IMG/VR virus record: IMGVR_UViG_2648501150_000028 | Reading direction: 5' to 3' (one strand) | Length of the DNA stretch: 6,008 nt | DNA from: a virus | Lineage: Duplodnaviria > Heunggongvirae > Uroviricota > Caudoviricetes | Part shown: piece after piece, positions 5,341 to 6,008 of the stretch | How positions within the stretch are numbered: the first letter of the stretch is position 1 | Layout of the letters: each line of letters opens with the position of its first letter | Notes under the pieces: generated by a model | Seen by the model: the letters and a program-made list of their open reading frames with translations, nothing else | What the model was told of the DNA's origin: nothing | Database searches by the model: none | Program-made: the position numbers and the translations under genes

Positions 5341-5385
5341 TATCTGCAATCAGGCTGGCGCGAGTTCTGTTTTTTTTCGGGCCGG

Positions 5386-5588
5386 TCTGATTTTCACATA
5401 CTGTAAGGTTATTGCATATTCCTCCTAGTCTCTTCCCATTTTGACCCAGTTCTTCCCATAAATATCTCACTTATTCCCTGTCATTTATCTCAAGTCTAAT
5501 CACCTTTGTGAGTCCGGGCTGGTAAAAAAAGTCACCCGGAAAGGTGAAAAAGGTAACTCAAGTAATATCTATCTCCTTCATCTGGATG
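5386..5588. promoter_or_regulatory. AT-rich non-coding region downstream of mor; candidate activator-dependent (middle-type) promoter region
   Basis: No ORF with a canonical start on either strand. Contains a TTGACC -35-like hexamer (5441-5446) without a convincing -10 at 16-18 bp, and a direct repeat TCTTCCCAT at 5431-5439 and 5451-5459. In Mu the Mor-dependent promoter Pm lies just downstream of mor. Confidence 0.25.
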
Positions 5589-5765
5589 GTGCAGGAGATT
5601 CACTAGGGGGTAGTGCAAATAATTCACTATCTGGTGCAGCAAATTCACCAGGTAGTGCAGGAGATTCACTAGGGGGTAGTGCAAATAATTCACTATCTGG
5701 TGCAGCAAATTCACCAGGTAGTGCAGGAGTTGCACCAGGGGGTAGTGCAGGAGATTCACCCAGAA
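5589..5765. repeat. array of eight iteron-like direct repeats (core GTGCA-N4-ATTCAC, spacing 24/21/21 bp) forming a 66-bp higher-order unit
   Basis: GTGCA starts at 5589, 5613, 5634, 5655, 5679, 5700, 5721, 5745. The 66-bp blocks 5589-5654 and 5655-5720 are identical; 5721-5765 is a diverged partial third copy. Each unit has dyad-like GTG...CAC ends. Confidence 0.9.
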
Positions 5766-5839
5766 CCAGTCACTCTTTTGAACCAGTCAAAGAACCAGTC
5801 AATGAACCAATAGCTGTTGGTGCATCTGCTGATGAGTCT

Positions 5840-6008
5840 GTGCGAGTTCGTTCAAACCGACCGGAATACTCTCCGGAGTTTGAGCAGGCATGGCTGGCAT
5901 ATCCCAAACGTGCTGGTGGCAATTCAAAATCTGCAGCCTTCAAAGCCTGGAAAGCCCGTTTGAATGAGGGGGTAAACCCCGAAACCATGCTGGAAGGTGT
6001 GAAACGCT
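5840..6008 (+). CDS. 5' part of a protein-coding gene running off the window end; start uncertain; possibly replication-associated, unverified
   Basis: Frame 2 is open from 5462 to the window end with no stop, including through the repeat array, but the first in-frame canonical start is GTG 5840 (then TTG 5960, ATG 5987). Translation from 5840: VRVRSNRPEYSPEFEQAWLAYPKRAGGNSKSAAFKAWKARLNEGVNPETMLEGVKR. The W-x-x-Y-P-K-R ... A-F-K-A-W-K motif resembles ones I recall near the N-termini of phage/plasmid replication-associated proteins; this is not verified. Confidence 0.4.
   Translation, partial: MRVRSNRPEYSPEFEQAWLAYPKRAGGNSKSAAFKAWKARLNEGVNPETMLEGVKR

Follow-up and report, generated by a model that had tools for sequence, protein, structure and literature searches.

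The early operon at the left of the window

The window, that is, the whole stretch of viral DNA that was analysed, is 6,008 nucleotides long. The ORF listing and Pfam matches showed that its plus strand carries the distal portion of an early operon like that of Mu. Genes for a B-like AAA ATPase (332–1498; 59% identity with BcepMu gp08), Gam (1798–2328) and a DUF7168 protein (3422–4105) are followed by gemA (4530–4979; Mu gp16 family; Pfam GemA, 8.3e-41; 44% identity with BcepMu gp02) as the penultimate gene of the operon and by mor (4951–5340; Pfam Mor, 1.3e-43) as the final gene before the genome end, and several small ORFs are present among them. The gemA and mor genes overlap by 29 nt (4951–4979) in different frames, an arrangement with which the annotations of E. 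coli genomes agree and which suggests translational coupling.

Megablast comparison to phage genomes cut the window into two parts, 1–5502 and 5503–6008. The first part shared 99% identity with Escherichia phage PhiKM, which is classed by NCBI in Bcepmuvirus. The PhiKM record itself (PQ738613; L008) is permuted and partial, and mor is labelled “protein C” in it. A host-like “Fe2+ ABC transporter permease” gene (L008 20200–20577) separates the tail-fibre gene from the mor end of this record, indicating that a host flank is embedded in it.

A single Mor/C-family protein

The mor product matched the Pfam Mor family with 147.8 bits (cutoff, 24.9), covering positions 1–107 of the 107-position profile, and belonged to PHROG 532, late transcriptional activator. 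It shared 54% identity with BcepMu gp01, about 30% with Mu Mor and 37% with Mu C. Its matches in the PDB were Mu Mor (1rr7) and MuC (9l0x), with equal E-values of about 4e-9; the protein stands at about equal distance from Mu Mor and Mu C. In its C-terminal helix-turn-helix region, FREFNGRNHHELARKFGVS was aligned to the FNGRN segments of both Mor and C. The C-terminus (window 5299–5322) reads MQGKLF and the corresponding sequence of BcepMu gp01 is RQRDLF; both align with QPDLF of MuC, which is reported to be a beta-clamp-binding motif (PMC12867686), and Mu Mor has QPSLL at the aligned position.

An earlier note on this DNA had claimed that no recognisable C gene follows mor, and this was borne out: a profile of Mor, MuC and BcepMu gp01 found no Mor/C-family gene in any of the six frames of 5341–6008 (best E-value, 0.31). 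In a complete copy of the element from E. coli (described below), Pfam Mor matched one of the 54 annotated proteins, and when the 704 six-frame ORF fragments of this 37.1-kb copy were searched with phmmer and a four-sequence Mor/C profile, mor alone was found. Neither 5341–6008 nor the complete copy had a second Mor/C paralogue that follows mor on its strand, as a Mu-type middle operon would have. Searches with Mor by tblastn located it as the terminal gene, at one copy per genome, in BcepMu, Ralstonia YO107_2, Stenotrophomonas phiSHP3 and many B3-like Pseudomonas phages (JBD25, Fc02, H71), and detected two Mor/C copies per genome, in a mid-genome position, in Mu, D108 and SfMu. In the Klebsiella relative KP12, mor is separated from the genome end by an additional 109-aa ORF (L013 34523–34852) that is missing from the E. 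coli phage; this ORF was not among the tblastn matches of Mor.

The earlier note took Mu as its reference, with mor followed immediately by the promoter Pm and gene C. This premise was loose, given that three small ORFs spanning about 790 bp (gp18–20 of NC_000929) lie between mor and C.

The segment after mor and the prophage terminus

Only 5341–5502 (162 bp) is non-coding after mor, and it forms the terminal stretch of the transposable prophage. The G+C content falls from about 0.53 to about 0.41 over 5300–5600, and is about 41% in the 248 bases from the mor stop to the repeat array (5341–5588) versus about 53% upstream. The description of this interval as about 250 bp of AT-rich non-coding DNA was thus correct in length and composition, but 5503–5588 proved to be coding.

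A strong hairpin followed by UUUUCA lies directly 3′ of the mor stop on the plus strand (5348–5392). Its calculated RNA folding energy was −25.6 kcal/mol (z = −4.8), and none of 200 shuffled sequences was as stable. To judge from this fold, the hairpin is probably a terminator or a 3′-end stabiliser of the early transcript. In Mu, the early terminator follows mor, and the hairpin of the E. coli phage occupies the same place. A scan for sigma-70 promoters and terminators over 4900–6008 gave matches at chance level and did not flag the hairpin, because its U-run is short. In the contig Phi06_2974 B, one base of the stem is changed from C to T, which preserves a G-U pair.

Downstream of the hairpin, a repeat search detected two subterminal direct repeats, TCTTCCCAT, 20 bp apart (5431–5459, plus strand), which were the same in every copy of the end and are possibly accessory transposase or host-factor sites. 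The terminal region proper (5460–5502, plus strand) comprises a subterminal AAATATCTCAC and a terminal 21-mer, CATTTATCTCAAGTCTAATCA, with a conserved CA at the end. These last 21 bases of the prophage, CATTTATC-N9-ATCA, correspond in inverted orientation to TGAT-N9-GATAAATG at the left end of the complete copies, which is present there twice, and a second, subterminal copy of the ATATC/GATAAAT motif occurs at each prophage end. The terminus of BcepMu carries GGAAATATC(G/T)C twice and also has a final CA. These terminal repeats are probable transposase-binding sites.

The Mu-like element ends at 5502 (…CAAGTCTAATCA), with A5502 as the last phage base and C5503 as the first base of the target. 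When seven insertion contexts were aligned (the window and the araH, irp2, yehK, rimK, dcuC and cysE regions), they were identical up to this end and unrelated beyond it, and in the window the homology to lambdoid phages begins exactly at 5503. In the complete E. coli genomes the Mu-like half always stopped at the same base, with a different host gene after each, and in the contig Phi06_2974 B homology also stopped at the equivalent of 5502, with other DNA beyond. The complete copies begin with TGATG and finish with TAATCA, and three complete prophages had the structure flank-TGATGCGCC...TAATCA-flank. These three E. coli copies were bordered by 6-bp target duplications, CCATTT, CCCTTT and GCTGGT, which were read at L001 927–932 and 38053–38058, in L009 and L003, and in L010 and L004. 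The target duplication of Mu is 5 bp; a Mu-like duplication of 5 bp was considered here and ruled out by the 6 bp found in all three copies. The shared stop at 5502 and the 6-bp duplications together indicate that 5502 is the true terminus of a transposable prophage.

A deleted, degraded copy in strain N196 (NZ_CP189514; L007 5631–7106 and 14688) was left out of the comparison of target duplications. Its mor end is intact beside cysE, a truncated transposase is fused to a portal fragment, and the tail region is cut off beside rhsC.

On the basis of the three complete prophages, CCTTTG at 5503–5508 is predicted to be the right-hand copy of a 6-bp target-site duplication. The left copy is outside the window, where we predict that TGATGCGCCGCGCGATAAATG... 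is preceded by CCTTTG and codons 1–60 of the interrupted gene. Three of the eight right flanks seen start with CC[A/C/T]TT (CCATTT, CCCTTT and CCTTTG), hinting at a weak target preference.

A severed replication-initiator gene beyond the junction

The sequence beyond the junction (5503–6008, plus strand) is a 5′-truncated, O-like replication-initiator gene of a lambdoid prophage, corresponding to codons 60/61–228 of 294. It shared 99.8% nucleotide identity with 37662–38167 of phage cdtI, which lies in the “replication protein” gene (gp46), and 98.5–99.3% with its counterparts in mEp460 and many Stx2 phages. The translated ORF was identical to residues 61–228 of cdtI gp46 at 167 of 168 positions, in frame, and the start of gp46 (294 aa) is located 179 nt upstream of the point that matches window position 5503. 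From about 5461 onward, one reading frame stays open until the window ends, and it contains no ATG, GTG or TTG before 5839. The GTG at 5839 was considered as the start of the ORF and rejected, the frame being open and 99% identical to cdtI gp46 from 5503.

The earlier note had seen a downstream protein without a Mor/C signature. This observation stood: the ORF had no Pfam match within the window, and matched instead the replication initiation proteins of PHROG 270 (5e-38). The intact gp46-type protein contains a Pfam HTH_36 domain at residues 17–67 and a weak match to DnaD_N, and is not a member of the Pfam lambda-O family. As the window copy starts at residue 61, the N-terminal winged-helix domain of the initiator is severed and the gene is a fragment. 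The downstream protein is the severed initiator of a second, lambdoid prophage, which the split gene would probably leave unable to replicate.

The truncated gene contains an iteron-like array of eight cores, (A/G)GTGCA-N6-ATTCAC(T/C), at a spacing of 21–24 bp (5588–5760). TRF reported it at 5589–5759, either as 66 bp × 2.4 (96% matches) or as 21 bp × 7.7. The 17-bp, dyad-symmetric cores are in frame within the O-like gene (nt 265–435 of the gene), and the DNA of the array also encodes a linker rich in Gly, Ser, Ala and Asn. The outer bases of the iteron arms change together, as A...T or G...C. The repeat array of the earlier note was real, and it is part of the coding sequence of the truncated replication gene. 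Lambdoid origins, such as ori in lambda O, sit within the O gene; the array looks like the origin iterons of the O-like gene, with a putative origin function. Three copies of AGAACCAGTCA, detected by a repeat search (TRF, 12 bp × 2.5), follow just past the iterons and are still in the gene (5762–5801). Many homologues of the Stx2 and mEp460 types align as two pieces at the array, which suggests variation in copy number. A search of Rfam over the repeats returned a single sub-threshold miRNA match, which is noise, and two minus-strand ORFs over the array (75 aa and 72 aa) were rejected as genes, being repeat artefacts with no family signal.

The complete element and its occurrence

A complete copy of 37,120 bp (L001 933–38052) is located between otsB and araH in strain EcPF7. 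An invertase and a tail-fibre segment occupy one end, P2-like tail, head and lysis genes are arranged on one strand, and an immunity region is located centrally. After the immunity region, genes for a Ner-like protein, a DDE/rve transposase, an ExeA-type B protein, Gam, GemA and Mor run on the other strand to the other end. The late genes are on the strand opposite to mor and begin about 11 kb away from it, and past the mor end there are host genes; in L001, then, lysis, head and tail genes are not co-directional with and downstream of mor, as they are in the Mu-type arrangement. The element has three features of BcepMu-like phages: an early cluster directed toward the genome end with GemA and Mor/C terminal; a Tn552/rve-type transposase with an ExeA/Eha-type B protein and a P2-like tail module; and TG...CA ends with 6-bp duplications at variable sites, of which the insertion in the window shows the right end only.

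Elements of this kind are common, with the mor gene and the terminal segment present in 641 of 5426 complete E. coli genomes (12%). The exact junction of the window was absent from these 5426 genomes, from species-representative genomes (31-mer search) and from metagenome contigs (24-mer search).

Candidate late boxes

A box, TTAA-N6-TTAAWATC on the late strand, was found in four intergenic gaps of L001 that precede late gene blocks (all on the minus strand): before the holin gene (26365–26382), the head protease gene (18898–18915), the gpE-like tail gene (12980–12997) and the baseplate gpW gene (6890–6907). There were four matches with at most one mismatch in L001 against 0.09 expected, a count that is partly circular in that the pattern was derived from the same sequences. 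Conservation provided stronger and independent support compared with this enrichment. The box recurs in the same gaps of L013 (KP12), L014 and L015 (BcepMu); KP12 and Phi06_2974 B retain it where the bases on either side have diverged. In BcepMu, whose genome has a G+C content of 62%, AT-rich boxes of closely similar sequence occupy these four gaps, such as CTAAAGCCGATTAAAAGA (holin and protease) and TTTAGCCGGCTTTAATATC (gpW). No description of these boxes was found in the literature that could be searched. An AT-rich palindromic element with TTTATAAAGGCTTTAC is also present upstream of the head protease gene, at about 18960–19000 of L001 (minus strand) and about 8730–8765 of L015 (BcepMu).

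MuC binds TTAT-N5-6-ATAA at four late promoters, which have a −10 and no −35 element (PMC12867686), and the boxes of the E. coli phage are like this site in their bipartite form and in their number. Each E. coli box is followed, after 20 nt, by an AWRCTG element that may serve as the −10. Since two of the boxes (E. coli gpW and BcepMu gp32) are very near annotated start codons, it may be wrong to place the box at −49 to −32, and the −10 (TAAWAT) might instead be part of the box itself. As a whole, the position and conservation of the four boxes suggest that they are candidate Mor-dependent late promoters and that a single activator may turn on the late genes directly.

Origin of the junction

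The window is, with high probability, the end of a BcepMu-type prophage (1–5502) inserted in a lambdoid O-like gene; C is missing since the lineage encodes only one Mor/C-family activator and lacks a middle operon. Positions 1–5502 make up the outermost 5.5 kb of an early operon that belongs to a transposable E. coli prophage of the BcepMu type and is transcribed toward one genome end with mor last. Past mor, the terminator-like hairpin is followed by about 110 bp of subterminal and terminal repeats, putatively bound by the transposase, that end in ...CA at 5502. The remainder (5503–6008) is the target: the insertion split the O-like initiator gene of a lambdoid prophage already resident there, at codon 60, and the repeat array would be the origin iterons carried inside that gene. 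No C gene follows, as mor is the last gene of a prophage that ends 162 bases on.

Among the alternatives, the one that fares best, though we consider it very improbable, is that the contig is chimeric and was assembled from collapsed repeats or from reads of heterogeneous virion ends. The absence of the exact junction from all three collections searched would agree with such an artefact, and virions of transposable phages do carry variable host flanks (PMC2771037). However, no repeat is common to both sides of the join, and the join is base-precise at the true terminus, as expected of a real insertion or a packaged flank but not of a random misassembly. The flank may also represent host DNA that was packaged in virions, and not the junction of a stable lysogen; it would still be a transposition junction.

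Slightly less probable again is a recombinational mosaic, a hybrid phage in which illegitimate or homologous recombination had brought together a Mu-like early module and a lambdoid replication module. Two unrelated phage modules do adjoin in the window, and mosaicism is common among temperate phages. On the other hand, the break falls exactly at a transposon-type ...TAATCA terminus that is common to seven insertions in unrelated sites, and the complete copies have 6-bp target duplications. Moreover, no functional hybrid gene results, since the lambdoid gene is interrupted within the N-terminal DNA-binding domain and lacks a start codon. The mosaic junction suggested by the earlier note thus exists as a junction, at 5502/5503, but as a transposition end in a target and not as a recombinational joint within one phage genome.

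That C lies just beyond the window in canonical order, or that the downstream ORF encodes a highly diverged member of the C family, can be practically dismissed: the window does end only 506 bases past the junction, but this ORF is a lambdoid O-like initiator (99% identity) with no Mor/C signal, the complete copies have only host DNA beyond their end and the 37.1-kb element a single Mor-family gene, and BcepMu and its relatives also have one Mor/C gene.

The insertion of the BcepMu-type prophage into a lambdoid initiator gene was seen in the window and in none of the three collections searched, which fits near-random transposition; that it reflects competition between prophages rather than chance is a weaker reading.

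Regulation and significance

The different regulatory wiring that the earlier note had suspected was confirmed in substance: the early operon points outward and ends with gemA and mor, the late genes are on the other strand, and there is one Mor/C gene. In the mechanism that we propose, the activator, whose gene is the last on the early transcript, would act on the four late promoters of the opposite strand. The cascade would then have two steps rather than three, and the single activator would do the job of C. That phages of the BcepMu type in general have such a two-tier cascade, in which one Mor/C activator, encoded by the last early gene, directly switches four box-marked late promoters, is a proposal that we consider evenly balanced between right and wrong on the sequence evidence.

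The BcepMu/B3 layout is already known (PMC2771037, PMC5977238), the junction is of an ordinary transposition type, and the conserved late box is the sole mildly new item. The stretch after mor is a prophage boundary and not a regulatory gap, which matters mainly for annotation. The window holds parts of two prophages, one inside the other, and the lambdoid one is probably crippled. The Mu model of mor, Pm and C should not be projected onto transposable phages of the BcepMu or B3 type, and the conserved late boxes provide a cheap means of testing how the single activator acts in the BcepMu-type group.

Comparison with known phages

The interrupted gene in the window is the same gene (99%) as that for cdtI gp46 and the “replication protein O” of mEp460 and Stx2 phages, with the array at the same place. 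It differs in being interrupted at codon 60 by a transposable prophage.

In Mu, as in the E. coli phage, gemA is followed by mor, which closes the early operon, and the proteins belong to the same family, with about 30–37% identity. The four candidate late promoters of the E. coli phage, with a bipartite AT-rich site resembling TTAT-N5-6-ATAA, are a further likeness. In contrast to Mu, the E. coli phage has no middle operon, Pm or second paralogue, its late genes are on the opposite strand and not downstream, its transposase is of another family, and its target duplication is 6 bp.

The early operon of B3-like phages is inverted (PMC5977238). The Pseudomonas phages of this group (B3, JBD25, Fc02) resemble the E. 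coli phage in this inversion relative to Mu and in having one copy of Mor, within about 150 bp of the genome end. They are siphoviruses, however, and their Mor shares only about 41% identity.

The description of BcepMu (Summer et al. 2004, summarised in PMC2771037) places genes 1–13, including regulators and the transposase, on the bottom strand, with lysogeny control at the interface, and then lysis, head and P2-like tail genes. In the GenBank annotation, gp01 is a Mor/C homologue located 364 bp from the genome end, gp02 is GemA, gp08 is B-like and gp09 is a Tn552-type transposase. BcepMu differs from the E. coli phage in the distance from mor to the end (364 bp compared with 162 bp) and in its proteins, which share only 44–59% identity. 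The E. coli phage also carries a DNA invertase together with a tail-fibre segment that can invert; BcepMu is reported to lack these (PMC2771037). The two phages are alike in the gene order (transposase, B-like ATPase, ..., GemA, Mor/C, genome end), the diverging early and late clusters, the Tn552/rve-type transposase, the P2-like tail, the terminal CA and the single Mor/C gene.
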